From: Amphiscolops sp. MND2022
Taxonomy: Eukaryota
Assembly: GCA_964187785.1 (NCBI GenBank)
Contig: OZ076409.1
Span: 10,604,001-10,668,000, forward strand
Length of the DNA: 64,000 nucleotides
Direction of reading: 5' to 3'
The notes beneath the pieces were generated by a model. It made no database searches. It was not told where the DNA came from and worked only from the letters and a program-made list of their open reading frames with translations. Shown here one piece after another: positions 34,438 to 60,918 of this stretch. The position numbers and the translations under genes are program-made. How positions within the stretch are numbered: position 1 is the first letter of the stretch; the number at the start of each line of letters is the position of its first letter.

Positions 34438-34610
34438 TTTAGGTTTCTTGGAAAGTCCCTAATTATTTTGCCTAAACCTAAATGAAAATCGCAGCTGTGA
34501 CAAAGTTTGAATGAAGTAGCTGTATTATTCAGATCAAACACAATAACTAAACAAGCTGAACAAGATTACATCATAGCGTAATACTTAGCTTGCATAAGAA
34601 GAAGTCAACA
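34438..34610 (-). repeat. 3' LTR of element B
   Basis: Direct repeat of 39213-39385; begins TGTTGAC on the minus strand, just after the purine tract. Confidence 0.9.
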
Positions 34611-34751
34611 CGGCTTCCTTCCTCCAAGACGGAGTCCACATGTAAGGCGGTGTGATCATCAGGTTACACTAGCTTACAACTGCGATTTTTATTGGTACAA
34701 TAAAATTTAACAAAAACGTTTTTTTTTCAAAAAAAGGAAAATTTAAAATGT

Positions 34752-37700: not shown

Positions 37701-38902
37701 TGTTGAAGTGAAGATTGTGACGTTGTCGGTTACTGCTAAGTTGCGGCAGTTGATATTTATGTCTTTGTCTTTGCGGAAACCCAGTCCTAGAATGTTGTCG
37801 TTGACGTCTGGGATGTAGAAGATGAAATTGTAGTTGCGTCGGAGGTAGGGTATGACGATTGTGAGCGTCATTTTTGCGTGCTTTTTGATACGGTCTTGGT
37901 TTACTGTTTTGAGATTCGTTGTTGTCGGCGTGGAGTAATCGGTGTTGACGAGCGTTGATTTGATGATTGATACCATAGATCCAGTGTCGGCGATGAAAGT
38001 AGTCTTCTGTGAGTTGATTTGGGCGGCAAGGCGGATGCAAATAGGATTCCCAATCGTTGCCGCCCACACGAGTGGGGCTATTCGTTTCCCTGTGCGGCGG
38101 GTGATTGTGCGCGAGATGACGGTTCGATATGTGCGGGCTTTGGTCCAGGCCACTTACACCAGGGCCTACAACGTTTGGCGGAGTTAGCGAAAAACAAGTG
38201 GAAGCGGCAAATTTTCGGTCGTTGTCCGGGCGAGAATGGCTGAATATTGTTGTCGGCTGTGCTGTTTCTTGGCGTTAGTTGCGGCTGGCGTGTATAGGAC
38301 GATGACGATGAGTGCTGTATGGCATAAACGTGCGTGTTGTCCTGAAACGTGTCCTTCGAGTAGCTGTATATGGTGTCGGCTAGTTTGGCGAACTTGTCGG
38401 GTGGCAGGTCCTAATATGCGGGAAGTGAGGAACGCGTTGAGATTGGCATGGCTTGCATAAGGTAGTGTTTGATTACATCGTTGTCCATTGTCAGATGACA
38501 TTCTGAAAGCTTGCGCTGGGTGCGCAAGAGGCAAACTGAGGGCTTTTGTCCATCCAGTGAAATCGTTCCTAATGCTTCTTCAATCAGTTCTGTTTTTGAC
38601 TTCTGGTAGACTTGAGTGATGCTCTCCTTGAGGCTGCTGTAATCTTCAATTTCTATTGGCAAGTTGATTGCGACGTCTTCTGGGATTGCTGCGAGGATGT
38701 GGTGATATTTGGTGGTGTCGTTGGTAATTCCAGCCAAGACAAACTGGGATTCCATTTGTCGGAACCAAACATTCGGGTTCCTGCGGTAGAATGGAGGTGG
38801 CTTCATGGTGACTCTGTTGACTGGTGCGTGTTGTAGTTCTGGCTGAGATGAAGTTGAAGTTGTGGTGTTGTCTCCAGATCCAAATTCGATGGTGTTCTGC
38901 AT
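34752..38902 (-). pseudogene. gag-pol: Frameshifted gag-pol of element B (gag 38411-38902, PR 37512-38153, RT/RH 36314-37606, IN 35558-36121 and 34752-35507 with C-terminal PHD finger)
   Basis: ADTGS protease, WADD (mutated YxDD), TDASG, H...CLTC, DIVGP, ERFHRTL, APYTGP motifs, broken over several frames. Confidence 0.92.
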
Positions 38903-39193
38903 TGTGGTGGTATGGATGATTGTTGGATATTATTGGATATTATTTCTTGCGAATATTCTAGTTTGTTTAAACGATAATCTGGTATTGATATTCGGGTTTT
39001 GTTACTGTTTCGTTTTTCTTCTTGTTGCGTAACTGTGTTTTACTTCTTTTTTTGGGGGTCTCCTTTTTTTCGTTCTCTTTCATACACTTTTTCGTTTTTG
39101 TTTTTTTTACTGGAAGAAGAAAACGAAAGAGGTTTGCGAGACAATGATTTAATGTTTGGAGAAAGTTTTTCTTTTTTTTGGGTGGGATGTTGG

Positions 39194-39211
39194 ATCACGT
39201 CGGGGTCACCA
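39194..39211 (-). other. PBS of element B, tRNA-Trp
   Basis: TGGTGACCCCGACGTGAT, the 18-nt tRNA-Trp PBS sequence also used by avian sarcoma-leukosis viruses. Confidence 0.92.
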
Positions 39212-39212
39212 T

Positions 39213-39385
39213 TTTAGGTTTCTTGGAAAGTCCCTAATTATTTTGCCTAATTCTAAATGAAAATCGCAGCTGTGACAAAGTTTGAATAAAGTAGCTGTAT
39301 TATTCAGATCAAACACAATAACTAAACAACTTGAACAAGAATACATAAAAGCGTAATACTTAGCTTGCATAAGAAGAAGTCAACA
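39213..39385 (-). repeat. 5' LTR of element B
   Basis: Direct repeat of 34438-34610, adjacent to the PBS. Confidence 0.9.
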
Positions 39386-40648
39386 CGTCCTTGTCTCAAA
39401 ATGTTATTCGTGGGTTGCACTTCAGAACGAGTGACTAATTGGTGTTCAGTGGTGATCGCCGTGTCTGTAGTAATTCCATATCTGCGTGCAACTGCTCTAA
39501 ACACTTTGAAAACTAGGGGAGTTTGAGGTTTCTTGATCCGGACTCGAATTCTCGTCGAAGGGGTGGCTAAGGGTGAAGTTTTTCATTCAAAAACTTGGGC
39601 TTAGGTTCTGAGGGTTGTCTGCATCTCCACTGGAACTCCAGTGTAACTTGTTCATTGGCTCATAGACGTTTGAGTTGGTAGCAGACTTTGGACATAGGTC
39701 TATGAGTGGGAACCCTTCACACTAAATCATATCAGTCCTGGGAGAGTACTGGAGTACCAGCCATGTTTAAGTGTTAGAACTCACAGCGCATTAAAAACCA
39801 TCGTTAACAGATAAGGCTAGAGTGAAGTTGGGGAGTTTAGTATCACATGATCATTTCTGGGCATGAGTGGTACTTGCCAAACTCTGTCGGGTTGCTGTCA
39901 CCGGACTTCTATTCTGGAGTGGCATTCGATCGGGGATGGAAAAAATTAGGTCAGTCCAGGTGAGCGTGAAGCGAACGTACTCGCAAGTAGTCAAGCACAA
40001 ACCCAGTAGCTTCCTTGGTCACCTAAAACGGTAGGTTAACCTGTATACATGACTACATTATATTCTTTGTAACGTCTAAGTGAAACTTCCGCCAGCCTGG
40101 TGGCCGAAAACCAAAATTTCGTTCAACATATCGCACAAACATTGGCGAAGTTTTGAATATTAGTGGGAACGTGAAATCAGGACAGACAACCAAAAAGGGT
40201 GAAAAAAGAGTGACCCCAACACCCTGTAGACCCGTATTAACACACGCAAACCCCAGATATTTTGATATTGCTGAATATATTGCACCCCAACCAGAATATA
40301 CACCCAAAAATGCTAATTTGATCCGGAAACTCATAACCTTTGGAATACTTTATTCCCAAGCAAAGATGAAATCAAATCCCGTTATTTGTGATTCTCCTCA
40401 CGATATAAAAAAGGTTCTATGTTACAAAAATCATATTTTTCAAGTGTTGACGAGCAACTAGCGGTCGGGTTTTACGCGTACGCCACTGACTGTGATCTCT
40501 TCCAGAGTTTTTTTCACTTTTTCAGTATGGATTTTCCGACCTTCTCTCGAGTACAGCCTGTGCGCACGGTTATTCGAAGAGTTCCAATCTTTGATTTCCA
40601 TCGTAAAAACACTGAAAAAATTTGGGAAAGAGCAATTTTGAAGTGTGG

Positions 40649-40985: not shown

Positions 40986-41438
40986 AGAAAGTGGTTCTAA
41001 CATTCGATTGCATTTCACTGCGACTCATTTAAGAATAATGAAAACATGTGTTTACAAAGAATCAGAACTTACAACTACTGGCACTCTAGAGCAATTCACT
41101 GATAGCCATCATGAAACACCAATTACCAAAGGTGGAAACAAATTTGCCCCTTCTAATTCCTTTCCTACCGGTAGCAATCTAGGGTCCAATGGTGGACATC
41201 GTTTGAATAATTTAATTTCAAATTTTCGTTTGAAATTCAAAATAAGGCTTCATGCCGATATTCAGTGCACCTAAAAATGTTAAATCCACATAATTTCGTA
41301 AAGAGGTACTTCAAAGACTCATTAGCAATTGAAGTCGCTCATAAAATCCCGCTACTATTGAAGTGGCTATATAGGCAGTGTTGTAGAAAGAATATAGCTT
41401 AGCCAGAACAATCGAATTACAAAATCAGATCGTCGCGG

Positions 41439-43673
41439 TGTCGAACCCAACCGTGTGGGTCGGCTTTGAAGGACCTTTCGAGGTTGACTGTCGGTTTTCG
41501 GTGTCTGTCTTACTTATGACAGCCATCATTAAGTCCTTCAGTTGACTGAACTCATTCTGTAGTTCGTTTATCTTTCTCTCATAACTCTCTTTTATTTCAG
41601 ATAACTGAGACGAGATATCAGAAACCTCGTTGCTATCAGAGTCATTGGCAGAAGACTGAGCCATGTCTGGGTCCGTTTGAATGGGTGTTTCTGATGAGGA
41701 ACTAATAACTCTTCCGCTTCTGAGTTCGGTGCCTAGATCTGGGTTCATAGAGGTGAGAGAAAAGGAATTATGAGTGAAGACTGGATTCTGGATGATTTTC
41801 GATATATTTTACTATTTTGTGCCGTTATTCGAACTCAAATTCACTATTTCTGAACTTGAGATGTAAATGCGATGAGTTTTACAGTAAGACAAGGATACTA
41901 GTAAAGAATGAGAATAGTTAACGAGGATTAAGTAGAGTTCATCCAAATTTCATCGAATAGATATCAATCAAGAAATTACTCAGAGTTGTGAAGGTAGCGT
42001 TATTTACGATGAATAAGAGATATGTTTTCTAGTTCAAATCTGTCGTAATTCGTCCAACTGGACAGTAGCTAATCGCAATTTCGGTCTGTGTAAACTCTAA
42101 TGGCGGTCCAAAATACAGCAGTTCACGTGTCTTTTCGGGCTGGTAAGACGCTAAATCTCTTACCAGCCGACTCTTATTGGCTATTGCCAGTTGGTGCTAA
42201 TTGGTAAGTCACGTGACCGGTGTTGTGAACTGCCGCAAGTTGGCCAAACCACATGGTACATCTACATATGCTAATTATGACTAATCATCACTTTACAATG
42301 TCGCAATTGCCTGCACACAGTGTCATGGTTTCTATAGCAACTCAAATCATTCAATAATGTACTAATTTCAAGTCAAAACAGAGTAAGCTGCATCACAGGA
42401 TGAGAAAACGATGTTTTTCCAACTAATTCTAGCATTAAAATCAATACTTCAAAAGCAAAGATGGAAACGCGATGAATTCGTCAGAATATTTGCTGATTTT
42501 CAAGTCTAGTTTAGCTCTGGATGAAAATGCGATGAATGGTGGTCTTTTAGCTCGAAAATCAACACGATATGAACTGACGATGATAAAAGGATGAACTCGT
42601 CTTCAAAATGAATGATTTCCAGCACAATTTAAATCAACGATGGTAAAAGGATGAACTCTCCTCGAAAATAACTAATTTCCAGCACTAGTGAAATTGACGA
42701 TGAATTCAGGATGAATTCAGCCAATAAAACAGGTGAAACAGCTAATTCTGCAGTGAAGACAAATATACGATGACTTTAGGATGAATACATTCAATAAAAC
42801 AGCAAAATCTAATGAATGAAATTCCAACGATGGGTTTAGGATGAACTCAACTGAAAATTCGGCTAGTTCTAACGTAAGTCGAACTAGCGATGAATTTGCG
42901 ATGAACTAGTGATGAGTTAATCTAATAAAACAGATATCCAGCACTTCACTCTTTTTTAGGATGAATTAAGGATGTACTTTCTCATTTCTTGTAGTTTCTG
43001 TTCAGGACGATGAAATATAGATGTGTTATGCTCTTTTTAAGAAATGAGAAGCACATTGAAGGTTAATAATCACAAAACGACGATGAGTATAGGATGGCTT
43101 TCATGCATTTTAAAGTCCCGTGAGATCCGCTGATGGATCACTAAATAAAATCAAATATATGTCCCAAATTTTGTTCACCCGCAATCTTGGCGATGTGATT
43201 GCGATGAACCTTGATAATATAGCACCGTAATTTCACTAATAGATCAAGTTGTAGGATCACTAAGTCCGCTGATGGATTAGTGATGAACTTTCCTGAAATT
43301 CGTCACGACTACAAGTCCTGAGGCGAGGGAGCTAGTAGAAGTTACAGATTCCATTATTTCTACATCTCTCGGTCCAGTCTGACCGGAAGACTTCTCTCCC
43401 TTATCGTGACAAACCAATATTGAATAAGATAGCACATTAAAAGCTATTGGCAAGATCATTTGTGCGGACACCGGAATTAGAGCGCTCAGTATTAAGTAAA
43501 TATATATAGCTCAAACTCAGGGGGGATAGGGATTAAAGTACAAGTAACGTAGGGTTGCTCACAACCATGGCTCTTATTATATGACATCATATTGCCCATA
43601 TCTAAGTACATAAGACATAATATTTACATTACAAATATTTAGTAGATTATATTTCCATCATGCTGGCATGACA
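41439..43673 (-). repeat. 3' LTR of element C (2235 bp); includes a copy of the first 103 gag codons (ORF 41425-41748)
   Basis: Near-identical to 58485-60720 (5 substitutions and 1 indel spotted by eye); preceded on the minus strand by GGGGAG. Confidence 0.97.
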
Positions 43674-44199
43674 CTCCCCGGGGCGGGATTTGGACTGAGA
43701 GTGCAGGGACCAAATGCGCAGAGGATGGTTGTCTCGGCGTTGGCTTCGACTGATCCTTCGTTTGGTTGGGGAGAAAATGGCCTTCGTTAGTTCTGAATTG
43801 GCATGTCCTTCGTTTGTTCTGTCCTGTGAGAGCTTCTCTGAGAAGAGGACCTTCGGTAATCGTCTTTTCTGGCATCATCCTGGGTGATTTCGGTTAAAAT
43901 TTTCGACGCGGCAACTCTAATTCTTGGTCCATCGAATGTCCGCTGACCTGCATTTTATTGGTTGTCATGCTTTTGACGGGAGTTTCGGCTGGTTATTTTC
44001 GGTAGAAGCTGATTTCTCGGAGAAAAGTTTCCCTCCAAAACGCCTACGCTGAGTAAACAATTCGATTAGCTTCACTGACAAATTGGCAGCGAGTCAGGGA
44101 TGAATGAACGATGAATTGTTTGCTCAGCGAGACACTGATGCTGTTTAGCGGAATGGCTGGCGCCGTTACTTGTTTACTCGCGATGAAAGGAGATGAATC

Positions 44200-44284
44200 G
44201 TTGCCATAGCAACTGTCAAAAGTTACTTCCGCTGCTCGACTTTTGAGTGAAAGAGAAAAGAGATGAATTCGTCGCCATAGCAAC
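44200..44284. promoter_or_regulatory. Two RFX X-box-like palindromes upstream of the antisense gene
   Basis: GTTGCCATAGCAAC (44200-44213) and GTCGCCATAGCAAC (44271-44284). Confidence 0.55.
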
Positions 44285-44797
44285 TGTTGCTCGATCTGAT
44301 TGGCTGAGACTGAACTTATAACTGAAGGAAAATACAACCGGTTGTCAGCAGCATTCTCATCCATAAATCATCCTCCATTCAAGTCGGTTTGAAAATCGCC
44401 ACGATTTCCTTTGCGCGTTTCCGCTCAACTTCGTCGGTATAGATCTGAGACTGGCAGCTGTCAACAAATCAAATACTTGAAGTTTTTGTCAAGTCCTGGG
44501 AGGGGACGATCCATTTTCAGAGAAGGCTTGAGTTGGTTGTACTGGGAAGAAAAGTGATGTCAGTATTTGAAATCGGAGAATTTTCATCGATTTTTCATCT
44601 TCTGAATTCAAGTATTTGATTAACATGGCATTCAAGCTGCGCCGCTTTTTGAAATCTTCTATTGAATTTGTTCTTCTGTAATCATGGTTGATCAGGCCAT
44701 TTAATTACTGATCAAATTCTCTGCTTCTGGATTCTTCGATTTCTTTCCTTCTTTCACCGTCTTCCATTCTTTTCAGATTGTTTTGCAATTTTTCGCG

Positions 44798-47700
44798 ATG
44801 TCGGATATCAACTCCATCTATTCGTTACCGGAGACCGAGGCCACAGAAAGTAAGTGCACTATTTTTTCTCTTCTTCACAAACGGGCCGGGGAATAATTAG
44901 GAATTGAAGGCGTGTCTTGGTTTTAGCGGACTCCGTTCACTCTGTCGGCATAATTTCCGAACTGACTACTTTGCAGACAGTTCCGCCTCAAGATGCTCCG
45001 ATCCCTGCAGCATCTCACGCACCTCAGTATCAACCTGAGCAGCAAACTGAACAGGCCCCTAACGTCCCGTATCTTCCGCAGTGTAAGTACTATCCTTCCA
45101 TTCTTCAGTTCAGTCTTCGAATCCCTCATATCTCATCCTTACTCTGTCCAGTAGCTGACTCCTTTTCGTATGGTGTTTCAGACCACTACCCCTGGTATGC
45201 TTCCCTAGGCAGCATCACCTTCGGGTGGTATGACCGCCACATGCGGGACATGCTGCGGGATAGCATCCAGCAGTACAGTGAGTTTGTCAATTTCCTTTTC
45301 ACTTCTCTAGGCTATCGTCCGAACACTCCGATGTGATTCCGATGTAAACATCTCATCTGCATGTAGTGTCCTTTGCGGTCGATTACCCATGTAATTCACC
45401 TTCGAGATGAATTTAGGATGTGTCATGGACATTCACAGCTCTTCATGACTGACTCGCTGTAAATCCCATTTTTGAAGATGAGTTTTGGATGTATTCTTCT
45501 CCGGTTTTCTTTCTTCGCGCGGCGTACGCGCTCTTTCTTCTCTTATCGTCGTCGTCCAGTAACTGTTTCTTCTTTCAGGCCCCACACCGATCCACGCACC
45601 AAGGCCTCGTCCCATCAGCTATTCCGTAGGAGTAGGGACGAGTGATTTCGCCGCAACTAGTGCTGATGCTAGCACTCAAGGAGGGCCTCCTCAACTTGAC
45701 TTGTCCTCGTTCCTTCAGGACTTGTCATTCGGGAGTGTAAGTTCTCCTGTCAGGCAGGCGCCAGTGTCTGTACTGTCGCCAGTGCTGAGGGGTTCTTTCG
45801 CCGCTAGTAGTCCTCCTCCTGCTCGTATCACTCTCGACGCTGCTGTGAATGCTGTTGTCGATTGCGTGGATGCAGTCACCGATGCCGTTGTCGATACCTC
45901 TGATCGAGCAGTCCAGGCCGTTGTGGAAGTCAGTGAGTCCTCCACCTTCCATGATCCTCCTGTTGAGGAACCTGTCATCGTTGCCTCTTCTTCTGTTCCT
46001 GCCTTTTCAGTCAGCGGCACTGATACACTTGGTGATGCTTCCGTGAGTACTGCCGGCGGTGCTGAGACCCTACTTGAAGTCCCTGGTGACTTCTCGTCCG
46101 ACAGCCTTCTGCCTGCTGAACCTGACCGAGAATCTGCTTCTCCCAGTGCTGCTCTCATGTCGACCGTGGCTTCTCCCATGGGACCCAGTCTACTGGATAG
46201 TGATGACGAACCAATCGCGTCCCGTCTGCCAGGTTAACTAAACAGCTTTAAACTGGTGAAGTATCTGATCAGTAGATTTTTCATTCATTTCCTTCTTCGC
46301 TTTTGCTTTCACTAGCATTTTTCACGTTTTTCTTCTTTTCTATCCATTTTTCATCGTTCTTCTGTTTTCACTATATGGTTTTCTGCAGTTTTCCATTTTC
46401 CATCACATTCTCATCGTCAAAAGTCGTTGAACAATAGTTTTCGCTCTCTAGTCCTTTTTAGAAATTTCATCTCTTTTACATCTTTAAAATTTTCTCTTTT
46501 CGGTTTTCGCTATTTGTCGGTGTTTTCTTTTCAGTTTTCATCTCTTTTTCATCGTTAAGTTGTTTTCGCTCTAAAATATCTCAATTTTTGGTTCAAAGTC
46601 GTTCTATTTATCTCTTTTCCATCGTTCAAGTTTTTCATTCTTTAAGGTTTCCATTTTTCATTCTGGTGGTGTGCAAAATGCATCTCTTTTTCATCTTTTC
46701 GTTTTCTTCGTTTTTCGCTTATATTTCCTGATGAAAATATTATTTTACATCATTTTTTCATCACTCCGGGTGACTTTTGGAAGTTTGCGGTGGTTTTTTC
46801 ATTTTTCAGTTTTTAAAGATTATTTTAAGATGATCTTGGAATTTTGTGGGAACGTGGTCGTTTTTAGTGGATGTGCTATGTGTTGGCATGTGATTATTTC
46901 TGTTTGTAGGGCGAAAAGTGATCAAGTCATGGTGGTTTTCTCATGAATACTGTGGGCTTGCACTGGGCTATGCACGAAGTCATCAATCGCGGCTATCATT
47001 CGTTCGATGTTTACTGTGCAAGCGTGATATCAATGTTGGCAGCCGTGGTATCACTACTTTCATGGAGCATTGTCGTGGGCTCCGTCACCATCGTTTGGAC
47101 TGTCTGATTCGTTTGTTTCGGGATTTACCGTTGCGGCGACGCGACGGGTCATTGATGAGTAATGAAGAGAGTGTGGAGTGTAGGAGCAGCCTGGGCGGTG
47201 CAATGGTGCCGTTCATTGAGACGTGCCCCTCCTTTAGTGTACTGGAGGTGTTTGAGTTGGAAGCAGCTGGACGACCTGTGTGGGGGGACGAGGAGGAAGA
47301 GGATCTATTGTGTGAAAAGACGGTGCATCTGTTCGTGTGCCTGGTTATTGACTCAATCTATCGTGGGTGTCAGTTCGCCAGCGTAACGAGTTTGTGGGAG
47401 GTGATGGTTGCGTCAGAGCCGCAACATGCCTCTCTTTTCGGTGTTACTTGCGAAGTGAATGACGTGATGGTAATTCGTATTTCTTTTTGTTTTTTGTTTC
47501 ATGAAGGTTCGTGTAGATGGAAAAAAAATACATTTAGTGGGTGGTTTTCCATAGGTAGTTTTGAAGCTTGGGTAGGGGGGATTTTCAACTATTAATTGTG
47601 TCGGGTTATTTTTAAGCGGATAGTGAATTAATGTATAGTAAAGTTGATGTTTGTTTTTAGAGTGTGGTTCTACTGAGTTTGTGGCCGTACGCGATGAAGA

Positions 47701-49575
47701 GGCTAATCACTCTGTGGTCTAACTGTGGGTTCAGTAGCTTTCATGTGGCTGTTGGGCAGGGGCGCGTGACTGGCACGGTCACAATGTGTTCTCTAGAAGG
47801 GATCAGTCAGTACTGTGTCTTCAGTTTTTGTCTGTCTCAGGATTGGGAAAAACGAGTTGTCACGTGGATGATTAACATGTGGTGTTGTTTGCTTGGAGAA
47901 CCTGTTCCACTTGGACTGTGTTGCGATGCGTTGCCACAGCTGGGTGGACTGTTCCAAGCCGCCACTGGCGTTGGGTCACTGGAGTTGAAGACGCTGTCAT
48001 TGTGTGAGATCAGTCGGACAATTGTGGACGTGGGAGGGCGGGCGCTCGGCGGGACTGATATTCATGTGGTGCTGAATCATCTGCAGAAAAGACTGAAAGG
48101 ATATGTCAGGGATCCTCTGTTGTTGAGCTGCCCTCATCTGTTGCAGGTCGGTGTAGTCTTCCGCTTTTATTTGAGTGTTACTATGAGTTGTACTCTTTGT
48201 CTGTTTCTGTTGTTTGTATATTGGTAGTAGTTTGTATTGTAATATTTTGTTTTATCTATGTGGAGCTTGTTATGTTTTGTTTAGGCGATTTTATCCGGGG
48301 AAGTCTACGTGTGGACTCTTGCTGATGTGTGCGATGAATTACGTGCCAATTGGGCAGAAGTGCTGTGTCTAGTTCGATTCGCTTCGGGAGACGGGCCAGT
48401 AGATGCGTTGGATCTTACTTTGAGGGTGGAGTTCGGGATCCCAATCAGGCTCCGGGCACTTAGTATGGTCTATCGTGCTTGTTAGTATGTTGTATACTTA
48501 CCGGGTGGGAAGTTTCTGTAGTTGGCCGTTTTTACGTATTCGAGTGTTTAATCAATTCGCATTTTTCGGGAAGGGAACGGGGGGGGGGTTAGTCCGATTA
48601 TTTACTGTGTATAGAATTGTTGTGTTTTTCATTTCAGTAGTGACGTCGTACGAAAAGAGTTTCGGGTCTTCATCATTGCGGAGTTGCTACTGGGCGATCG
48701 AGAGTGCATTCTTTGTGAAACGCCTGCTGACTCTACTGGTTGACGAAGAGAGCCTGCCCACTGATCTGGATATCCGTGGGTGGTTGTTTGTGGATGTAGA
48801 CAGTTATGTTGTGTCAGCGACTAAGTTACAAGCCCTTATCGCGAGTTTCAGCTCGGATGAGAATTTGACGGAAGATGTGGCTGTGTATGAAGAGGATGTG
48901 TCCCGAGTGCCTAATTTCTTATTGTCTATCGTCAGGAACGTATTATTGCTACCAGGGATTCGTGACGATCTTGCTTTCGTGCGAAGTGTCTTTAGTTCAC
49001 CCAGACTGGTTTGTGTGGCGGAAACTGATCTTGTGGCGGAAATTCGCAATTTTACTGGTTTACTTGTGGAAATGGGGCGGATCAGTTTAGTCGAACAGGA
49101 TCGAATGGAGCTCGGATTTCTGGAATTTATAAGGGCTTTTCGGTGCGAGCCTAGGCCAGCTGGGGCGACTGCCGAGTATTCAGCCGTTGATCTGTTGCGT
49201 TGCTGTTCCAGTCGCGGGTCACAGAGTCTGTTACAACTTGTCTTTTGCCTGGGAGGGGTGGTGCAGAGCACTTGCAATACCATATGCGAAGGGATCGGGC
49301 ACCTGCCGAGCGATGTCATGAGCTGTGTGTGTGCAGTAATCTCTGGTTATTTGTCTGCTAATCATGTGCGAAGTTACGGTAGTGTCAGTGGGCCACTGAT
49401 GGAAGAAGTGATGGAGTCGCACAGAAGGCTCGTCGATCTATCAGAGATTACAGAGGGCATGTTGTGGGACGACGTCGGTATCGTGGCTGGGGAAGATTAT
49501 CGTCTCCAGTTATATGCTAGTCTTGGTTACGATGTGACCGGGGAGCGGGCTGCCAGTCCCGAGATTGGAAACTGA
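44798..49575 (+). CDS. Antisense accessory gene of element C; predicted exons 44798-44849, 44927-45082, 45152-45277, 45579-46232, 46910-47469, 47661-48146, 48285-48480, 48638-49575 (1055 aa if exon 4 joins exon 5; otherwise a 330-aa gene ending at 46237 plus a second gene)
   Basis: All seven introns are GT-AG with pyrimidine-rich acceptors and matching phases (1,1,1,1,0,0,1). No in-frame stops. C-x2-C-x16-H-x5-H zinc finger in exon 5. AATAAA at 49676. Confidence 0.8.
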
Positions 49576-49675
49576 CTTATTAACTGTTTATGTTGTTCAT
49601 TGTTTTGCTATATAATTTGTTGTATTTACATATTAGTGTAGTTATTCATATGTTGGGAGACCCATGAAAAAGGTC

Positions 49676-49681
49676 AATAAA
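49676..49681 (+). terminator. Probable polyadenylation signal of the antisense gene
   Basis: AATAAA 100 nt after the TGA at 49575. Confidence 0.55.
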
Positions 49682-52198
49682 TGGAAAGCACAGTAATGAC
49701 CATAGTGCGAATGATACAAATCCAGATGCTACGGCGGAAAGATCGGTAGTAGTGTGTTTACAACATTAGTTATTTTGGTGCCCAACAGCTGTTTTTCTTT
49801 TGAGTTGTTAGTGATAGTTACAGAGGATATTAAGTACGTGTAAATCAACAAGTTCGTCCAACAGTTCACTTGAAGCATTGTCTTCGGTATTTTTGTATCA
49901 TAGATCATCGGTCGCGCATCGCGTTTATGGTGTTCATCGTTATTACATCTCGTGGTAGTGTAAGTAACTCGTCAGCGTTTGATCTTTGATTTTTCATCTC
50001 ATTTTCATCACGTTTTCCTCGGTCGACCAAGCGACGTCGTGAAAACTGTTTTTGTCATCGTTTTTACATCTTTCGGTGCGTCAGAAACATTGCATGTTGT
50101 TACATGTGGTTTTTCTACGTATTTCATCATTTTTTCATCTTGCGTTTGATTTGAGCACTTTCGTGCGTTTTTTGCTATAGTTCATCGTTTTTGCATCGCA
50201 AGTTTGTCTTGTTCAGTTTCTGCTCATTTTGCTGTATAGTTCATCTTCTTTTCATCGTGCGTTTGAAATGTACGGATTTTTGCGTGTTTTCGATGTTATT
50301 TGGCTATAACGTAAGCGGGGGTTGCATTTTTCGTGTCCGGAGGAAATTTTTATTAATATTGCGGTGTTTCGGATTGTTTTCTTCATGTATTTTAGCGTTA
50401 TACGGTTATAACCATTTGTCGTGTTTTTGAATTTGCATGAATTTTATGGTACATGTGTTTTAATCATCGTCGTCATGTTTCTAATTTGTCAACTTCGGAA
50501 CGTCATCGCATGTATTTTTAGTTCGAATTCTGGTGACCGCCGCTTGCGTGGCAGTCGAAAATAAGTTCACTCAGCAGTGGTACTGATAGCCTGTAGGCGT
50601 GCAAGGTACTAGTGGCTTCAGTCCAGAGCTGGGTGAGTGGAGCTGCTCCGCTCCTTTCAGATAAATGGAATCTCGTAGTTTCGGGCTATATATAGTCTAT
50701 ATGTCATTTTTTCGGTCGGTTGTTTGCCATTATTCGTCGAAATGGGTTTGTCCATTTGACGGTCAGTCCGATCAATCAATGTGATTGACATCTACGGTTA
50801 TGCATGTGTCCAGTTTTAGACTATCTGTTTCTTGTATTTGCATGTATGGATGGTTACATGATGTGCTCTTTTAAATGGGTTGCCCCATTATTGACATGTC
50901 GTTATATGTTCGGTGGTAGTTTCATGTTTTCTAATTTTATTTTCGTTCATTTGGACAGGGCTTTGTCGTCACAAAGCCCCTACAAAACTAACTGAGAATC
51001 CACTAGCCGCTGGATAACCAACGCAGCAAGCTTCATCCGAATATGGTTGTGAGCTCCCCGCCTCAACTAACCAGCACTCTTTTCAGAGAAATGCCAGCCA
51101 GCACGAAGGAATGATTTTAGTTTTTCGGTAGGGGTGTTTTGTATTTTATGAGCTGATGTTTACTGGGGGGTGCTCACTCCTTTATTAGTTTTGTAGGTGT
51201 TTCGTCAGTTCTTATATTTTGCATGTAAGTTAGTAGACTTCATGTATTTTCGATTGTTTGTTTCATTTTTATTCGTCTAGGTTCGGATGGTTTTGGTGTG
51301 AATTGCATATATTATCTCATTCATTTTTGAACGGTACATGTATATTTCCGTGCGTTGCTCATTTGTATTGCATGTAGTTTGGAATTGTTAATTGCTTTCG
51401 TGACGTCATTGATTTGGCAGGTCTTTGAACTTTACATGTATTGATCATTTCATTTTTGTGTCGCATAATTTCGTTGCATGATTCGAAATAAGGTCGGTTG
51501 TTTTTTATCGTTTCGTGGAGTTACATGTTGTTTGCGAATTAGCTGATTTATTGTGATGTTATGTTGATGGTGTTTCCCATCACAAAGAGGTGTTGGTAAG
51601 TCATTTAATATTTTCGAATTTCCATTTAGACTAAATTCATCGTTTTGACATCCTCCAGCGAAGCTAGAGTATTGTGTCAGGTTAACGATAAATTCGGTCG
51701 CGATTTGATGGTAGTGTCCATCACAAATTCATCTCGTTAATTGATTTCATGTAATTTATGAATAATTGGATCGAGTTCATCGTTATTTCATCCTCTGGCC
51801 GAGCTAGAGTCTTATGATAGCATGAACGTGAGTGCGTTCGCATTCTGATGGTATTTCCCATCTCAAATGCATCGTTAGTAAATATTGCATGTTGATTGGT
51901 CTATTTTTTGACTGAGTTCATCACTTTTTCATCTCTCGTGTGTCTGAGTTAAATTTTCGTGTGGTTTCATCCTTTTTTCATCTCAAATTTTGTGTGTTGT
52001 TTTTTCTGGTTTTTTGATCGTTTTTCATCCGTTTTACATCTCGTTTTGTTTGTATGCGGTTTTCATGTGATTTTTAGTAACTTTTCATCCATTTTACATC
52101 TTCATGTACTTTTTAAGTTAAAATTGCATGTAATTCGTTCGTTTTTGTGATTTGTTCATCCGTAACACATCTCAGATTTAAAGTGAAACTTTTCTTGG

Positions 52199-55100
52199 CT
52201 AAATCGTTACGTCTATTTTGTTGGTCTTTCTCAGTGCGTTTCTAGCTGAAGTAATCTCATGAATGAGGAAGTCTGGATACGTTTTCGGTGTAGGGTTCTC
52301 ACGTAACCTGTACCTACTTTGATTTGATCTAGACGGTCTAGAACTCATCCTTTCTTCATTTTCGTTTTGCGTGTTTGTCTGTTGTGACTGGTTTTCGTGT
52401 TGTTCGTCTCTCAGAGGTACTCTTATCCTACTTTCATCGCGGGGAGGCGGTAGAATAATTTCTTCTCGCGTTCCAAATCTAACTGTAGGTGGTCTAAAGT
52501 TGTTGTGATCAGTTTCTACTTGCTGATAGTCTATCCTCGTGGTTATTTCTGGTGGAATTACTTGTGGAGTGTGTTGTTCTTGTACCCGAGGAATTGTTTC
52601 TTCTGAAGGCTCTTTTTCGACCAAGTCTTGATCTAGATTGTCATTCTCATCCTGATCTACTTCGTCGGTCATCGGAATATTCGAGTCGAAAATGTCCGTG
52701 TCTTCAACCCTTTCGGTATCTGGGTAGAGATGTTTGGACATGTTGATGTCGTCAATCGGAAATTCCGGTTTGAACAATCTCAGTCGCATGCGATGTACGC
52801 ACTGAGTTTGGTGTGTGCCTACTTTGCGGATGATGTAGTTGCTATCGGATAGCAGTTTAATCACCTTGTACGGTCCTTTCCAATGGAAAGTTTTAAACTC
52901 TTCTTTGCTTCTCTGAGAGTCGTACTTAGGGTCTAGTAGGAACACAAAGTCATTCACCTTCAGTGGCTGTGCTCGTGCTTTTCTATCATAGTACGTTTTG
53001 TACTTGTGATAGGCGGAAATGATGTTGTCTAGATTGTCTCTGAAGATAAAATTCATTTTGTCTAGAATTTCGTTCACGTCTTTGCACTTTGTTTCAGCCG
53101 GTTTGTTTGCGTTTCGGAATTGCAGATCTAGTGAGTTGTATGGTGTTCTTCCGTGGAAAATTTCGGTTGGTGAGCATTTCAGTGAATCATGATACGTTGT
53201 GTTATGGGCCATGATTGCTATGTCGACATAGCGGTCCCATTGTGGTCTGTCTGCGTTTACACTAATCTTAAGGATCTTTTTCAGTTTCGCGTGCGTTCTC
53301 TCCACCATGCCTATTGTCTGCGCGTGCTTTATCGTGGCATGGGAGATGTGAATATTAGCCGCTTTCGCGATTTCAGACAGAAGTTCAGCCGTGAACGCCG
53401 TGCCTTTGTCGGTCAGAATGTGTTTGGGCACATACGCGTGTTTTGTGAAGATCGACAGTAGTCCTCTGACTACGGAATGTGTGTCAGGTCTCTTCAGCGG
53501 AACGGCGAACAGGTAGCGCGAAAAAACGTCAACAGCCGTCAGAATGTGTGTAAAACCGTTCGATGCCGGGAGTGGACCAACGATGTCTATTTCCAGCAGG
53601 TCTTCTGGTCCGTCGCACGGGTCGTAGATTTTTTGTAACGGTGGACGTAGTTGCGTTTCTTTTACACTTTTAGACTTCATGCAGTTTTCACATCCGTCAA
53701 GGACTTTTTGAACTTTATAGGCTAAGTTAGGAGAGTAATATCTTTTACGAAGTTCATACAACATTTTCTTTAAACCAGGGTGTCCTTGTACCGGGCTGTT
53801 ATGTAGAGTCCTAATTATTTTCAAAATACAGTCTTCAGGAACGACTAACTGCTTATGAGACTCTAGTCCCGTGTGGTCAAAAAACTGTCTGTACAAGACA
53901 CCGTTTACAACTTGTAGGCGTTTTCGATTTTTGTACAACTTTTGAAAAAACTGGTCTTGCATGTTAACTGGGTGTTGCAAAATTTCAGTACCTTCTAAAA
54001 ATCTAATCATTTTTTGGATAACCCAGTTATTTTTCTGGACCTGAATTAGATCGATCCCCTCGGCGGGGCTAACCTGACTCATTACCGGGTGTGATAATGA
54101 TACTTTACGGATGAATTGCGAGAGTTGAATCGGCTCGTCCACGTCTGTGAGGCGGTACGTCAGATGGTTGTCAGTCGCGAAGTCATCTGAGGCCGCAGTT
54201 CTCTCACAGTTGGTGAACTTCATCCCTTTCCCATCGTCATGAGCCACGTCAGTGCCAGTTGCCAATTTCATCTCTTTGACATCCTTCTGGCGTTTGCATC
54301 TGAGTGGTTCGCTCGCGGGGAAGTAATCAGGCTCGTCTTCCTCCTGTTTTGGTGTACGGGAGGCGATGTCGATCTCGATCCTGTGAATTGGAATAGTATC
54401 AGTCAATTTTAAATGTACACGGTCTTCAGGTCTAATCTCAAGCCGAGATAAGTAATCCGCTGCGGGATTTTCAACTCCTGGAACATGTGCTAATAGAAAA
54501 TTGAACTGAAGGGTTTGATCGCAAAAGTTCCAAAGTGAAGGCGGGATATGCTTCGCCTGGAAAAATCTAGTCAAGGCCTTATTGTCAGTCATAACAATGA
54601 TGGGTTTTTTCGCACCCCACAAAATGTGGCCAAATTCATCGAATGCAAAGTGCATAGCTAAAAACTCTTTGGCATACATTGTTAGAGACATCTGGCCGCC
54701 CTGAAATTTCTTAGAGCCAAATGCAACAGGGGCGTATGTATGTTTGACTGACGGGTCTGCATAATCCTCGATTAACAACACATAGCCTGCAGCGTGTTCG
54801 CTGGCGTCACACATGATTACCAGTTGTTTATCTGGTAATGGCAATTTCAGAGACACTTTTGTTGCTTTTAACAAACTTTCATTAATTTCAAAAATAGCAT
54901 CTTTATGTTGTTGGTTCAGCTTGAAAGGGACGTCTTTCTTGATGAGTTCCTGTAAACAACAAGTTTTATCAGCTAGACGGGGAATGTAAGACCTGTAAAA
55001 GTTCACAAAACCAAGATAACGTTGCAACGCTTTCACTGAATTGGGGGGTTTCAACTTCGTTAAATAGTCTGTTACGCGTTTTTCAATGGGAGCAATACCA

Positions 55101-57292
55101 GTGCTAGAAATGGTTTTTCCCAAGTACTCAATTTGTTTTTGTCCAAATTCACATTTACTCATGCTAAGTTTAAGACCAGCTTTTTGCAATTGTTGAAAAA
55201 CAAGTTCAAGGTTGGTAATCAATTCTTCGGGTGAGTGTGCTGCAATTCCAATATCGTCAACGTATTGGGCACAGCGGTCCGCTTTGACCAGGGGGTCCAA
55301 ATACTCACGGATTACTCCTGTAAATGCTGACAAAGAACGATTAAGACCTTGTGCTAGACGTAAAAATGCAAAAGTTCTAGATCCAAAATTAAACGATAAC
55401 AGTTGGACAGATTGCTCATCGGCCATTGGAATGCAATGGTAGGCCTGGGAACAATCAAGTTTGCAGAAGTACTTTTTCCCGGCCATGTGTTGGGCAGCGT
55501 CAGCAATTGTTGTTACGGGATGATTGTGCTCACCGTAATCGTTTTTGATCAGGTGGTTTATTCTTCTCAAGTCAACTAAAATCCTCAATTTACCATTAGG
55601 TTTACGCTGAGCAAATATCGGGGAAGAGTATTTGCTGTGAGGCAAAGTAGTTATAATCCCGTACTCTTGCATTAGGGCTAACTCCACGAGCAAATCGTCC
55701 TTCAAATTTGTCGGAGTCGGGAGACTTTGTGAATAAACAGGTTCTTCATGTTGAGGTGTTAACTTAACTTTAAAATCAGTGTTCATGCCAATATCAAAAC
55801 GGTGTCTAGCAAAAATGGAGTTGTACTTTACCAGCAACTCCTCTACCTGTAACCGTTGAGACGGAGTAAGAAGCGAGTCGTCCCAGTTGAAGTTCTTCAG
55901 GAAGTTCATCCGTTGTTCATCGGATTGGGACGGGTCAAGCTTCTCGAGCTCTCGCAGTGCCAGAATCTCATCATAAATCCGTCGCTCAATTGCGTTGAGT
56001 TTGTCTGGCTCACTGCACGTCTCGGGAGTTGGGTACCACTTGGTTGACTTCATTTCAGGGTTCACAAACAGTTGGTTGATCACTGCTTCGGCTTCATCTG
56101 GATACTTGGTGATCAAGTTCAAGTGTTCCACTGGCATGGGCGTGATGTTTGCCGCCTGGTGTGGTGTCGGGATGCGAAAGTGTGCCAGAGTGGTGTTGGC
56201 TTCAAGTGTGTACGTGTGGTTGTTTGGGTTGGTGACCTGGATTGTCGTCTTGCCCTCGTCTAGGTCAACCAAAGCTGGAGAAACAAGCAAACACGTCTTT
56301 CGCATGAATCCAGGTGAGCCCTCAACTGTACCAGTTGTAAGTGAGATGTCCGCGTCACTGTGGACCTGTATCATCACTTGATGGAGAGGAGGGATCACTG
56401 TTCTAGTACTGGAACACAAATCAATTAAACCAGTTTTGAATCTGTTGTTCTTTTGCTGTCTAACTTGCATGGACATCATGTGATTAGGGAAGTGGACAAG
56501 GTGGTTTTTGATGTCTAAGTTGACTGAGTACTTTTCAAAAAAGGACATTCCAATTAAAATTGTTCCCATTGTTGGAAGGATTAGGAACGTTTCTTCGAAT
56601 ACTTTTCCAGCAACGTAAAATCTAAGTAAGACTTGCTTACGCACTGGGACTAAGTTCCCGTTTGCTATTTGAATTTTGAAATTCGGAGGGGGGAATTCTT
56701 GAAGGATGGCTTCTGGATGAGCCGTTGTTATTTTTCGCAGTTCGGCTTCAGACATTGCACTTTGTATTGCGCCTGTGTCTAAAAGTGCGCTGTTTTCGTA
56801 TTTGTCAAACTGAAGAGGGACGTACAGCATTTTATCTTTCTTGTTTAAATGTAAAGTGGGACTGAGAACGTGAATTTCTGTTTTAATTGCATGTTTTTTA
56901 GTTTTTGAAACGTTAATACTACTCTGTTTTGCATGTTTTTTAATACTAAGCCGTTTGTCGATTGTTGAGTGTGAAGTCGAGTCGTCGTCTAGATGGTGGG
57001 TTTCCATCTCTTTGGCATCTTCCACCTGCCTCATGGTGTTTGGTTGCCAGTTCATCGTTTGTTCATCGTTGATTTCAGCGAGTGGAGAAAAACGGCTGCC
57101 GTTGAGTTGACTTGCATTTCTCATCGCTTTTTCATCGTTGGAAAGTCTTCGCTGATAGACGTCGTCAGCTTTTGGTCGATTGTCCAGTGAAGGCTGCCAT
57201 TTCTTCATTGGACGGTCGTGTGTAGTCGGTTGAGTCGAAAGTCGTTGGTCGCGCGTTGTGTTTCTAGCGGGCGGAAATCGTGGCGGAATCAA
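52199..57292 (-). CDS. pol: Pol of element C (PR, RT, RNase H, IN), probably expressed by -1 frameshift from gag
   Basis: LLDTGA, YVDD, CDASEHAAG, H...H...CENC, DIVGP/TDKG/VER, WKGPY; uninterrupted 1697 codons. Confidence 0.97.
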   Translation of the reverse strand: MIPPRFPPARNTTRDQRLSTQPTTHDRPMKKWQPSLDNRPKADDVYQRRLSNDEKAMRNASQLNGSRFSPLAEINDEQTMNWQPNTMRQVEDAKEMETHHLDDDSTSHSTIDKRLSIKKHAKQSSINVSKTKKHAIKTEIHVLSPTLHLNKKDKMLYVPLQFDKYENSALLDTGAIQSAMSEAELRKITTAHPEAILQEFPPPNFKIQIANGNLVPVRKQVLLRFYVAGKVFEETFLILPTMGTILIGMSFFEKYSVNLDIKNHLVHFPNHMMSMQVRQQKNNRFKTGLIDLCSSTRTVIPPLHQVMIQVHSDADISLTTGTVEGSPGFMRKTCLLVSPALVDLDEGKTTIQVTNPNNHTYTLEANTTLAHFRIPTPHQAANITPMPVEHLNLITKYPDEAEAVINQLFVNPEMKSTKWYPTPETCSEPDKLNAIERRIYDEILALRELEKLDPSQSDEQRMNFLKNFNWDDSLLTPSQRLQVEELLVKYNSIFARHRFDIGMNTDFKVKLTPQHEEPVYSQSLPTPTNLKDDLLVELALMQEYGIITTLPHSKYSSPIFAQRKPNGKLRILVDLRRINHLIKNDYGEHNHPVTTIADAAQHMAGKKYFCKLDCSQAYHCIPMADEQSVQLLSFNFGSRTFAFLRLAQGLNRSLSAFTGVIREYLDPLVKADRCAQYVDDIGIAAHSPEELITNLELVFQQLQKAGLKLSMSKCEFGQKQIEYLGKTISSTGIAPIEKRVTDYLTKLKPPNSVKALQRYLGFVNFYRSYIPRLADKTCCLQELIKKDVPFKLNQQHKDAIFEINESLLKATKVSLKLPLPDKQLVIMCDASEHAAGYVLLIEDYADPSVKHTYAPVAFGSKKFQGGQMSLTMYAKEFLAMHFAFDEFGHILWGAKKPIIVMTDNKALTRFFQAKHIPPSLWNFCDQTLQFNFLLAHVPGVENPAADYLSRLEIRPEDRVHLKLTDTIPIHRIEIDIASRTPKQEEDEPDYFPASEPLRCKRQKDVKEMKLATGTDVAHDDGKGMKFTNCERTAASDDFATDNHLTYRLTDVDEPIQLSQFIRKVSLSHPVMSQVSPAEGIDLIQVQKNNWVIQKMIRFLEGTEILQHPVNMQDQFFQKLYKNRKRLQVVNGVLYRQFFDHTGLESHKQLVVPEDCILKIIRTLHNSPVQGHPGLKKMLYELRKRYYSPNLAYKVQKVLDGCENCMKSKSVKETQLRPPLQKIYDPCDGPEDLLEIDIVGPLPASNGFTHILTAVDVFSRYLFAVPLKRPDTHSVVRGLLSIFTKHAYVPKHILTDKGTAFTAELLSEIAKAANIHISHATIKHAQTIGMVERTHAKLKKILKISVNADRPQWDRYVDIAIMAHNTTYHDSLKCSPTEIFHGRTPYNSLDLQFRNANKPAETKCKDVNEILDKMNFIFRDNLDNIISAYHKYKTYYDRKARAQPLKVNDFVFLLDPKYDSQRSKEEFKTFHWKGPYKVIKLLSDSNYIIRKVGTHQTQCVHRMRLRLFKPEFPIDDINMSKHLYPDTERVEDTDIFDSNIPMTDEVDQDENDNLDQDLVEKEPSEETIPRVQEQHTPQVIPPEITTRIDYQQVETDHNNFRPPTVRFGTREEIILPPPRDESRIRVPLRDEQHENQSQQTNTQNENEERMSSRPSRSNQSRYRLRENPTPKTYPDFLIHEITSARNALRKTNKIDVTI

Positions 57293-60720: not shown

Positions 60721-60918
60721 CGCGGGGTAAAAAACCAGGATGTTACAAAATTGACTGCATATTTGTGAAAAACTTGGTGTTGATAGCAGGCGGTGACCCA
60801 TCCTGATTGTCAACTTGATTGTAACCATTTTATAGTAACTTTCATTCCACCTGTTGGTTTCTTTCACAAATATTTAACAAGATATTGTTTGAAACAAATA
60901 TCTTCTTCGGCGAGCCTT

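Follow-up and report, generated by a model that had tools for sequence, protein, structure and literature searches.

A predicted spliced antisense gene of probable hAT ancestry in a Ty3/gypsy retrotransposon, with element-specific GATGA doublets as its candidate binding sites

Antisense accessory genes are already known in plant and fungal gypsy elements. In the plant Retand/Tat elements (Grande gene23, RIRE2 and Retand TRP28, or Pfam Transposase_28), an antisense gene is conserved in most copies and lies between pol and the 3' LTR, this region is long and bears repeats, and a DNA-binding regulator has been proposed as the product (PMC11963269; PMC7264820). Boty-like fungal gypsy elements carry an extra antisense gene, brtn (PMC7264820; PMC8365987), and the deltaretroviral proteins HBZ and APH-2 are nuclear regulators encoded in antisense on the 3' LTR side (PMC11963269). 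Most antisense ORFs are described as being of unknown origin and without similarity to other transposable elements, and the origin and function of such genes in LTR retrotransposons are stated to be open questions (PMC7264820).

Two groups of DNA transposons also bear on the present case. VANC, an anti-silencing protein encoded by the Mutator-like VANDAL elements, binds short motifs, often arranged in tandem, in the non-coding regions of its own element, including introns, spacers and ends (PMC5735166); it removes DNA methylation and has been traced to MAIN-like host proteins (PMC13547354). In hAT transposases such as Hermes and Ac, a finger is followed by an RNase H-like half, then by a helical insertion and the C-terminal part. 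Domesticated BED/hAT proteins make up the ZBED family.

The locus described here lies in a 64-kb window of contig OZ076409.1, by which we mean the whole stretch of DNA that was analysed, and it resembles each of these systems in part. It shares with the Retand/Tat elements an antisense gene in a long, repeat-bearing region between pol and the 3' LTR, but here the gene has seven predicted introns and encodes about 1055 aa with a BED-like finger and a hAT-like body, accompanied by a specific doublet motif; PMC11963269 does not use the word "intron". For brtn, no transposase ancestry is reported in the text consulted (PMC7264820; PMC8365987). HBZ and APH-2 are unrelated proteins, and this element has no env-sized ORF. 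As with VANC, short motifs have accumulated in the element's own non-coding DNA, but the carrier here is an LTR retrotransposon with an unrelated protein, and the binding is a candidate only; because CpG is depleted nowhere in the window (observed/expected 0.88 to 1.29), VANC-like removal of DNA methylation is unlikely. The predicted domain order and landmark spacings are similar to those of hAT transposases, whereas terminal inverted repeats (TIRs) are absent, a 329-aa acidic extension is present and the domesticator would be a retrotransposon instead of a host. In the largely open-access full texts that we searched, no LTR element was described as carrying a spliced gene of hAT origin, and the form seen here was likewise absent from them. 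We read the locus as an intron-bearing accessory gene whose hAT-derived, non-cutting product would bind the element's own doublets and so switch on or shield element copies, a joint reading to which we give an even chance.

A predicted antisense gene within an intact element

The carrier is an intact Ty3/gypsy LTR retrotransposon of 19.3 kb, placed by its LTRs, target site duplication (TSD) and Pfam domain order. The LTRs (2235 and 2236 bp, TG...CA) differ by 5 substitutions and 1 indel and are thus 99.7% identical, the 5-bp TSD CGCGG is found on both flanks, and gag and pol are both open, with the order PR-RT-RH-IN in pol. The earlier note had proposed that the antisense protein was retrotransposon cargo, which is supported by the position of the gene inside an element with LTRs, gag and pol. 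The features are as follows (window coordinates, with strand).

41434 to 41438, no strand: left TSD, CGCGG
41439 to 43673, minus: 3' LTR, TG...CA on the element strand; 7 GATGA-N6-GATGA doublets (41939 to 42915)
43674 to 44797, plus: upstream region of the antisense gene, putative promoter and 5' UTR; 3 doublets (44099, 44357, 44584)
44798 to 44849, plus: predicted exon 1, ATG at 44798 (splice consensus only)
44927 to 45082, plus: predicted exon 2 (splice consensus only)
45152 to 45277, plus: predicted exon 3 (splice consensus only)
45579 to 46232, plus: predicted exon 4, acidic and Ser/Pro/Thr-rich (open frame and phase match)
46233 to 46909, plus: intron 4, 677 nt, T-rich; 7 GATGAA and 1 doublet (46538)
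46910 to 47469, plus: exon 5, BED-like zinc finger (about 47008 to 47091) and linker
47661 to 48146, plus: exon 6, predicted helix, three-strand meander and helix; RNase H-like first half, helical insertion begins
48285 to 48480, plus: exon 7, Trp (model 688) spaced as Hermes W319; homology to P0011 up to the exon end
48638 to 49575, plus: exon 8, helical insertion-like domain, relic acidic column (model 961), conserved C terminus and stop
49576 to 52198, no strand: non-coding spacer from the antisense-gene stop to the pol stop; 20 GATGAA, 6 doublets and degenerate repeats of 58 to 60 bp
52199 to 57310, minus: pol, 1703 open codons, PR-RT-RH-IN; 3 doublets within the coding sequence (55906, 57052, 57121)
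57289 to 58794, minus: gag, 501 aa, zinc knuckles; ATG within the 5' LTR
58473 to 58484, minus: primer-binding-site-like sequence, TGG start, adjoining the 5' LTR
58485 to 60720, minus: 5' LTR; 7 doublets
60721 to 60725, no strand: right TSD, CGCGG

The possibility of an env gene between pol and the 3' LTR was rejected, as the longest element-sense frames there (172 and 180 aa) are shadows of the antisense exons. Kinship of the antisense gene with a 1519-aa ORF of another gypsy element was also rejected (hhalign probability 0.2), and an Rfam scan over the whole element returned 0 matches.

The gene model on the plus strand comprises 8 exons, 7 introns and 1055 aa. Exons 4 to 8 (45579-46232 through 48638-49575) can be joined at GT..AG sites into a single open frame, an outcome that random choices among nearby GT/AG sites produced in only 40 of 20000 trials. 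The model of exons 1 to 4 follows splice consensus only, and its N-terminal exon path is 1 of 14 open paths enumerated. Its first 329 aa contain 12.8% D+E, 3.3% K+R and 33% S+P+T, in agreement with the acidic, Ser/Pro-rich N terminus described before, and by its composition this part may be an activation domain. Donors at 48463 and 48485 for exon 7 were dropped in favor of 48481 because the relative P0011 aligns up to that position.

Exons 5 to 8 are well supported as predicted coding exons, since their frames, zinc ligands and exon edges are kept in hundreds of unnamed relatives at 27 to 99% identity. Exon 5 has 66 clusters of relatives with 641 member sequences (46 to 99%), and for exon 8 there are 15 clusters holding 182 members (38 to 98%). 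Exon 6 gave 36 matches (27 to 97%), 34 of them credible after P0025 and P0036 were dropped as repeat-driven chance. Just past the exon-5 donor, 35 of the 37 usable rows (of 66) have Val, which is encoded by a GT codon, and 35/40 rows have Gly at the junction with the exon-5 acceptor; past the exon-6 donor, Val stands in 8 of the 11 rows that could be used (of 34), with identity of 74% inside the exon versus 5% outside. The strand-like runs and LGLCCD reported earlier fall in the frame 47661-48227 and the helical part in the frame 48424-49575, which belong to separate exons.

Genomic context is available for one copy of a family with 641 exon-5 sequences, compared with 380 gag and 1482 pol cluster members. 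Relatives of gag or pol and relatives of the antisense exons apparently share contigs in 4/28 cases, a figure that is not significant if the assembly is smaller than about 1 Gb. The antisense-gene protein varies at 46 to 99% identity, and the sampled gag and pol relatives are 88 to 98% alike. None of 1045 longer candidate proteins matched exon 5, and neither viral contigs, queried with exon 8 and RT, nor prokaryote genomes gave a useful match. The sole metagenome match, L001, was bacterial and was dropped as chance.

The finger, the GATGA doublet and their candidate role

The zinc finger described previously is present in the plus-strand frame 46894-47595, with its Cys and His residues at about 47008-47091. 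Over 33 aligned exon-5 sequences, its ligands are conserved as C in 33/33, C in 32/33, H in 32/33 and H (x5) in 30/33, and an additional H (x6) is found in 33/33, so the finger is more than chance. Its assignment to the BED type is partly sustained: Pfam zf-BED was found in 10 of the 33 members (best E 0.0016, 18.8 bits) and rows 5 and 6 of the ESM Atlas search were BED and Spin-doc/GT2D2 fingers at 0.87, but both results fall under their cut-offs (20.6 bits for Pfam). PDB sequences compared with exon 5 and profiles A1, A2 and A3 gave only E > 0.1.

The doublet GATGA-N6-GATGA occurs 27 times in the window against 0.11 expected, and all 27 copies lie inside this element, distributed over the LTRs, the stretch preceding the antisense gene, intron 4, pol and the spacer. 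With one LTR counted there are 20 doublets. In the 6.3 kb of non-coding element DNA, GATGAA is present in 52 copies versus 8.9 expected (maximum of 16 in 200 shuffles), and same-strand GATGAA pairs 11 bp apart number 15 against a null mean of 0.34, with none outside the element. Since the doublets stand in both strand orientations, a DNA site fits better than an RNA signal. This element-specific motif is new relative to the earlier note and supplies a candidate binding site.

The antisense protein likely binds the doublet, as suggested by their co-occurrence in this one copy. BED domains bind short repeats cooperatively, and the BED pair of Hermes reads a palindrome rather than a direct repeat (PMC10368747). 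By analogy with hAT BED domains acting on subterminal repeats, a hAT-like scaffold would hold two BED fingers that read two GATGAA half-sites 11 bp, or one helical turn, apart. The gene would be transcribed from the 3' LTR side and then spliced, and its introns could outlast reverse transcription because the genomic RNA strand would carry no splice signals for them. The acidic, Ser/Pro-rich N terminus may recruit activators or anti-silencing factors. The best reading of the system, by analogy, is a self-recognizing DNA-binding regulator with its own sites that would work like plant VANC. More broadly, and with somewhat less than even confidence, we suggest that a retrotransposon lineage domesticated a DNA transposase, kept its introns through antisense carriage, dropped catalysis, added an activation-like arm and placed paired sites in its LTRs, intron and spacer and even among pol codons, yielding a private self-activation or anti-silencing system that spans both transposon classes.

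For one antisense accessory gene the case suggests a likely origin, the capture of a DNA transposase across transposon classes, and with the 11-bp-spaced GATGAA doublet it supplies a definite candidate target. If true, sequence-specific self-recognition, as shown for plant VANDAL, would also exist in a retroelement and be built from different parts, and a transposase would have been domesticated by a mobile element and not by its host. Such a system may help to account for the hundreds of copies in the family.

The same anatomy would suit a hAT-derived, doublet-binding protein that represses its own element as a copy-number brake or acts on the cDNA, by bridging LTR ends, aiding nuclear import or choosing targets. 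Antisense ORFs have been proposed to serve nuclear import or regulation (PMC7264820), and doublets in both LTRs would mark both cDNA ends. However, 13 of the 20 doublets are internal, away from the tips, including those in intron 4, the spacer and pol, and the N-terminal composition seems better suited to an activator. We regard this account as unlikely.

Rather unlikely, too, is that the doublets serve a host transcription factor while the hAT-derived protein does other work, for example decoying or inhibiting zinc-finger or silencing proteins of the host. LTR elements commonly gather sites for host factors, finger and motif are linked only through co-occurrence, and conservation in the C-terminal helical part matches that of the finger. 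The confinement of the doublets to this element, with none in the host flanks or the two other gypsy elements of the window, is nevertheless what a private protein-site pair would produce, and the zinc ligands and basic residues around the finger are nearly invariant.

Ancestry and catalytic state of the protein

The antisense protein quite probably descends from a hAT transposase, as the earlier note had proposed. The BED finger, exon 6 and exon 8 each point weakly to hAT or Hermes and do so in the right order, although none of the three matches is individually significant. Models of exons 6 and 8 were poor (pLDDT 68 and 57; pTM 0.42 and 0.44), and together they predict, at low confidence, a helix, three strands and a helix, followed by further helices. 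With the exon-6 model, Hermes 8edg ranked 6th of 48161 chains (Z 4.4, rmsd 4.9, 86 residues aligned, Hermes 152-259); the last aligned pair places model 88 on Hermes 259, a pairing displaced by about 11 residues from the one needed to match the exon-6 Asp to D248. The exon-8 model placed Hermes 4d1q (Z 4.3, rmsd 3.9, 80 aligned) and 2bw3 (Z 4.0, rmsd 4.0, 83 aligned) first and second among 250 re-aligned chains, over Hermes 426-562.

Comparison of the per-exon models with Hermes, which had been suggested earlier, gave Hermes a rank at Z 4.3 to 4.4, below the caution lines of the structure tool (Z 8, and 13 for helical models), but no Foldseek match for either exon at E 0.001. For exon 8, Foldseek placed Hermes 2bw3 in row 25 of 37 (E 6.4), a wide VIA search had no Hermes among its best 50 (best Z 4.2), and the best ESM Atlas match was unnamed at 0.85. 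A second VIA look at exon 6 did not list Hermes, Pfam returned nothing useful for exons 4, 6 and 8, and the hAT C-terminal dimerization domain, PF05699, was not listed for 14 exon-8 members.

These scores leave some room for a true accessory gene that is not hAT-derived, in which the BED-like finger is joined to an unrelated fold or to what is left of a different insertion-domain transposase (Mutator, P or Kolobok). BED-like fingers are also found in Mutator transposases, all structural Z scores are below 5 and tied by unrelated folds, and the exon-6 model also resembles generic meander or RNase H-like folds of kinases, terminase and integrase. We consider this improbable, however, because Hermes was named in advance and was recovered for two separately folded exons over matching stretches and in order, and because the landmark spacings (58/83/273 aa) fit those of Hermes (68/71/253) and Ac (66/97/255).

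The hAT catalytic triad corresponds to Hermes D180, D248 and E572 (PMC6027215), and we assigned its positions through predicted structure and spacing rather than residue-level alignment. No column at the end of strand 1 has Asp in more than 7/24 rows; the strand-4 candidate (model 605), a plausible second Asp, is kept in 6/24; and the candidate Glu (model 961) is E in 5/14 and D in 7/14, or acidic in 12/14. The claim that the DDE residues were largely lost thus holds for the family, in which the triad is not conserved, but this copy retains Asp 605 and Glu 961 at plausible positions. Of the other hAT marks, the RW pair (Ac R463-W464) appears as an exon-7 Trp with no preceding Arg, neither Cys nor His is conserved in exon-6 columns 108-119, where CxxH (Ac C401/H404) was sought, and in place of Ac F/W722, S723 and R733 the positions +3, +4 and +14 from the Glu candidate hold Gly, His and Cys. 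None of D, D, R, CxxH and E-x-x-F-S is conserved in the antisense protein. Around the gene, exact inverted matches between 43675-44900 and 49575-52200 reach at most 11 bp, and the best flank match to an 8-bp TSD is 5/8 among 15 listed; a nested hAT insertion with TIRs was rejected. Without conserved catalytic residues, TIRs or an 8-bp TSD, the gene is not a working transposase, and its predicted product likely cannot cut DNA.

It is very improbable that the gene is a mere passenger, a dead hAT transposon or domesticated host gene inserted in one element without benefit: nested insertions are common, a single copy is seen in context and the relatives P0024, P0066 and P0067, apparently co-located, could be non-LTR copies, but the gene flanks lack the marks of such an insertion, and relatives down to 27 to 46% identity retain frames, intron positions and ligands while catalytic positions vary, a pattern expected of neither a neutral passenger nor an active transposon.

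Element and antisense gene structure

The gene studied here lies antisense to a Ty3/gypsy retrotransposon, which is marked as such by its gag and its PR-RT-RH-IN pol.

Element and antisense gene (window coordinates)
41439-60720, minus strand: 19.3-kb LTR retrotransposon, with the antisense gene inside
41439-43673, minus strand: 3' LTR
58485-60720, minus strand: 5' LTR, 5 substitutions and 1 indel apart from the 3' LTR
Both flanks of the LTR pair: 5-bp target duplication, CGCGG
ATG at 58794, minus strand: gag, beginning within the 5' LTR
Minus strand: pol, 1703 open codons, PR-RT-RH-IN
44798-44849, 44927-45082, 45152-45277, 45579-46232, plus strand: exons 1-4, predicted
46910-47469, 47661-48146, 48285-48480, 48638-49575, plus strand: exons 5-8, GT..AG joins

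No env-sized frame was found on the element strand within the 8.5 kb separating the pol stop from the 3' LTR. When spliced at GT..AG, the eight antisense exons (48-56% GC, with T-rich introns of 32-44% GC) give one frame of 1055 aa. Random GT/AG edges placed up to 30 nt from the edges of exons 4-8 left an open frame in 40 of 20,000 trials; for exons 1-3 there are 14 open paths, and the one used is predicted from the window sequence alone. The N-terminal arm is 12.8% D+E, 3.3% K+R and 33% S+P+T. The exact gag, pol and exon-6 products of the window are each on record from a 201,272-base contig. Clustering groups 380 members with gag and 1482 with pol; the 14 further members listed in each cluster share 88.5-97.8% (gag) and 92.8-98.5% (pol) identity with the window copy.

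The gag frame opens about 310 nt before the inner end of the 5' LTR (58485-58794, minus strand) and crosses that end and the primer-binding site. The same frame is present in the 3' LTR (41425-41808), and the gag-coding part of the LTR is the site of 3 of the 5 LTR substitutions. The spacer contains a perfect 9-bp hairpin with a 4-nt loop (~50959-50980) at the start of a GC-rich island (~50959-51110) and a second such island at ~50530-50660; no Rfam match was found in this hairpin and island region.

Exon relatives and intron positions

All relatives of the antisense exons are unnamed, exon-sized ENA gene calls. Of 36 matches to exon 6 among 1.84 billion representatives, 34 were kept, with 27-97% identity; exon 8 has 182 members in 15 clusters (38-98%), and exon 5 has 641 in 66 clusters (46-99%). 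At exon edges, we counted only relatives below 90% identity whose frame reads through the edge. Beyond the exon-5 donor, Val comes first in 35 of 37 usable rows (of 66); at the exon-5 acceptor, 35 of 40 rows have Gly as the junction residue; and beyond the exon-6 donor, Val comes first in 8 of 11 usable rows (of 34). Identity falls from 74% inside to 5% outside the exon-6 donor edge, with smaller drops at the exon-5 edges (37 to 15% and 47 to 19%); just 2 of 15 rows were usable for exon 8. Because these edge residues and identity drops recur in diverged relatives, the intron positions are kept across diverged copies.

Relatives of exons 5, 6 and 8 fall on same-sized contigs in 9, 11 and 7 cases. 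Contigs of 4 of 28 gag/pol relatives equal antisense-exon contigs in size, an overlap that is suggestive if the assembly is at least 1 Gb (P 0.04) but not if it is 0.5 Gb (P 0.25). Two pol fragments, P0175 and P0172, match in contig size the exon-5 relatives P0120 (48163) and P0124 and P0056 (389370), respectively; the pol fragments are 93-97% identical to the window copy and the paired exon-5 relatives only 56-58%. If these pairs share elements, the antisense gene changes far more quickly than pol, whether by divergence or by swapping. In two exon relatives, P0022 and P0033, exon-6 sequence joins the C-terminal end of exon 8 directly, and in P0011 exon 6 continues straight into exon 7; these copies have undergone internal deletion or lost some of their introns.

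Probable hAT ancestry and loss of conserved catalytic residues

The earlier note had read the antisense protein as a zinc finger joined to a catalytically dead hAT-like transposase. The zinc ligands of the finger are near-invariant among aligned exon-5 relatives. Pfam zf-BED matches 10 of 33 exon-5 members, the best (E 0.0016) still falling short of the cut-off. Its named ESM Atlas neighbours, BED and Spin-doc/GT2D2 fingers (0.87), are a lead only. The exon-6 model (pLDDT 68, pTM 0.42) shows a helix, three strands, a helix, an unresolved stretch and then helices; Hermes is row 6 for it among 48,161 chains (Z 4.4, rmsd 4.9, 86 aligned), where unrelated folds tie, and residues 1-88 align on Hermes 152-259. 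The helical exon-8 model (pLDDT 57) has Hermes 4d1q and 2bw3 as rows 1 and 2 of 250 chains re-aligned from the Foldseek list (Z 4.3 and 4.0), with residues 109-204 on Hermes 426-562. None of these matches is significant singly. Nonetheless, the finger, exon 6 and exon 8, each tested separately, fall in order on Hermes, a candidate named beforehand. The successive distances between landmarks (end of strand 1, exon-6 Asp, exon-7 Trp, exon-8 Glu) are 58, 83 and 273 aa; the same spacings are 68/71/253 in Hermes and 66/97/255 in Ac, with landmarks from PMC6027215. Because the three weak matches are collinear and the landmark spacings agree with them, we consider hAT ancestry probable.

Loss of the conserved catalytic residues is supported by the aligned rows (24 and 14), in which the Asp and Glu positions vary. 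In every column at the end of strand 1, at most 7 of 24 rows carry Asp, and the window copy carries no Asp in that place; at the strand-4 candidate position 6 of 24 rows carry Asp, and no Cys-x-x-His follows it in the aligned exon-6 columns. The exon-7 Trp lacks a preceding Arg. Where the catalytic Glu would be expected, 5 of 14 rows have Glu and 7 have Asp; Gly comes next, and the Phe, Ser and Arg kept after the catalytic Glu in Ac, as described in PMC6027215, are missing there. The antisense protein does not belong among the active hAT transposases. Terminal inverted repeats accompanied by an 8-bp duplication are absent from the flanks of the antisense gene, and there is no sign of a nested hAT insertion.

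An antisense layout is known from plant and fungal gypsy elements: PMC11963269 and PMC7264820 describe plant Retand/Tat elements with accessory ORFs that lie antisense in the region from pol to the 3' LTR, and PMC7264820 and PMC8365987 do likewise for fungal Boty. Two reviews cover the extra ORFs of giant animal LTR elements: PMC6431247, in which the word "antisense" does not occur, and PMC5408684, which uses neither "intron" nor "transposase"; passages of PMC8721813, PMC12477816 and PMC13547354 contain no such element. Full-text literature searches, subscription journals, Repbase and supplements aside, gave no report of a spliced hAT-derived gene in an LTR element.

GATGA doublets and a candidate role

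GATGAA is the top 6-mer of the element's four non-coding blocks, with 52 copies in 6.3 kb vs 8.9 in shuffles (max 16; z 12 vs a shuffle maximum of 4.2), and its density is 6-10 per kb in these blocks vs 0.6 in host flanks. Fifteen pairs of copies lie on one strand at a spacing of 11 bp, vs a null mean of 0.34 (max 5 in 5000), and there are none among the 37 GATGAA sites elsewhere in the window. All 27 doublets (GATGA-N6-GATGA) in the window fall within the element (expected 0.11): each LTR has 7, the stretch ahead of the antisense ATG 3, intron 4 one, the spacer 6 and pol codons 3. Some lie within degenerate repeats of 58-60 bp, so not all are independent. The pol doublets (55906, 57052 and 57121, minus strand) occur in unrelated codon contexts, each encoding Asp-Glu-x-x-Met, and the DNA motif appears to shape the pol protein at three unrelated places. 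A candidate DNA site fits because doublet orientation flips from block to block. Eleven bp is one helical turn, and this spacing could allow two fingers of a dimer to read the candidate sites from one face.

Our best reading, held at about even odds, is that a spliced antisense transcript would yield a hAT scaffold that is nuclear and catalytically dead; its fingers would bind the candidate doublets and its acidic Ser/Pro-rich arm would recruit activators or anti-silencing factors. Antisense placement would preserve the introns, since genomic RNA would bear their reverse complement. According to PMC10368747, Hermes BED domains cooperatively bind short subterminal repeats, a precedent for the proposed short-repeat binding, though the target there is a palindrome. 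A second precedent is the VANC proteins, which recognise short motifs of the element that encodes them, in its introns, its spacers and its ends (PMC5735166). DNA demethylation is an unlikely output because CpG is not depleted in the window.

The strongest competitor, self-repression or a cDNA-level role, is nevertheless improbable. It is less probable again that the doublets are host-factor sites and the antisense protein has a separate role. An ancestry other than hAT, to which the unrelated folds tied with Hermes might point against the collinear order, is quite unlikely, and a mere passenger gene is the most doubtful of all.

The window also contains a second giant gypsy element (3-14443, minus strand) that lacks GATGA doublets. 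Its 3297-aa gag-pol overlaps by 10 nt with a following open frame, which runs off the window after at least 1519 aa and has a Pro-rich N-terminal part, a globular-looking middle and no Pfam match. A small gypsy element (34438-39387, minus strand) is older and frameshifted, with 175-bp LTRs 95% identical, a DUF7041 gag and a PHD-like finger beyond the integrase. A 212-codon frame (32530-33168, minus strand), outside any paired LTR, resembles the N-terminus of a related gag and may come from a sister family, as a solo LTR or a fragment.
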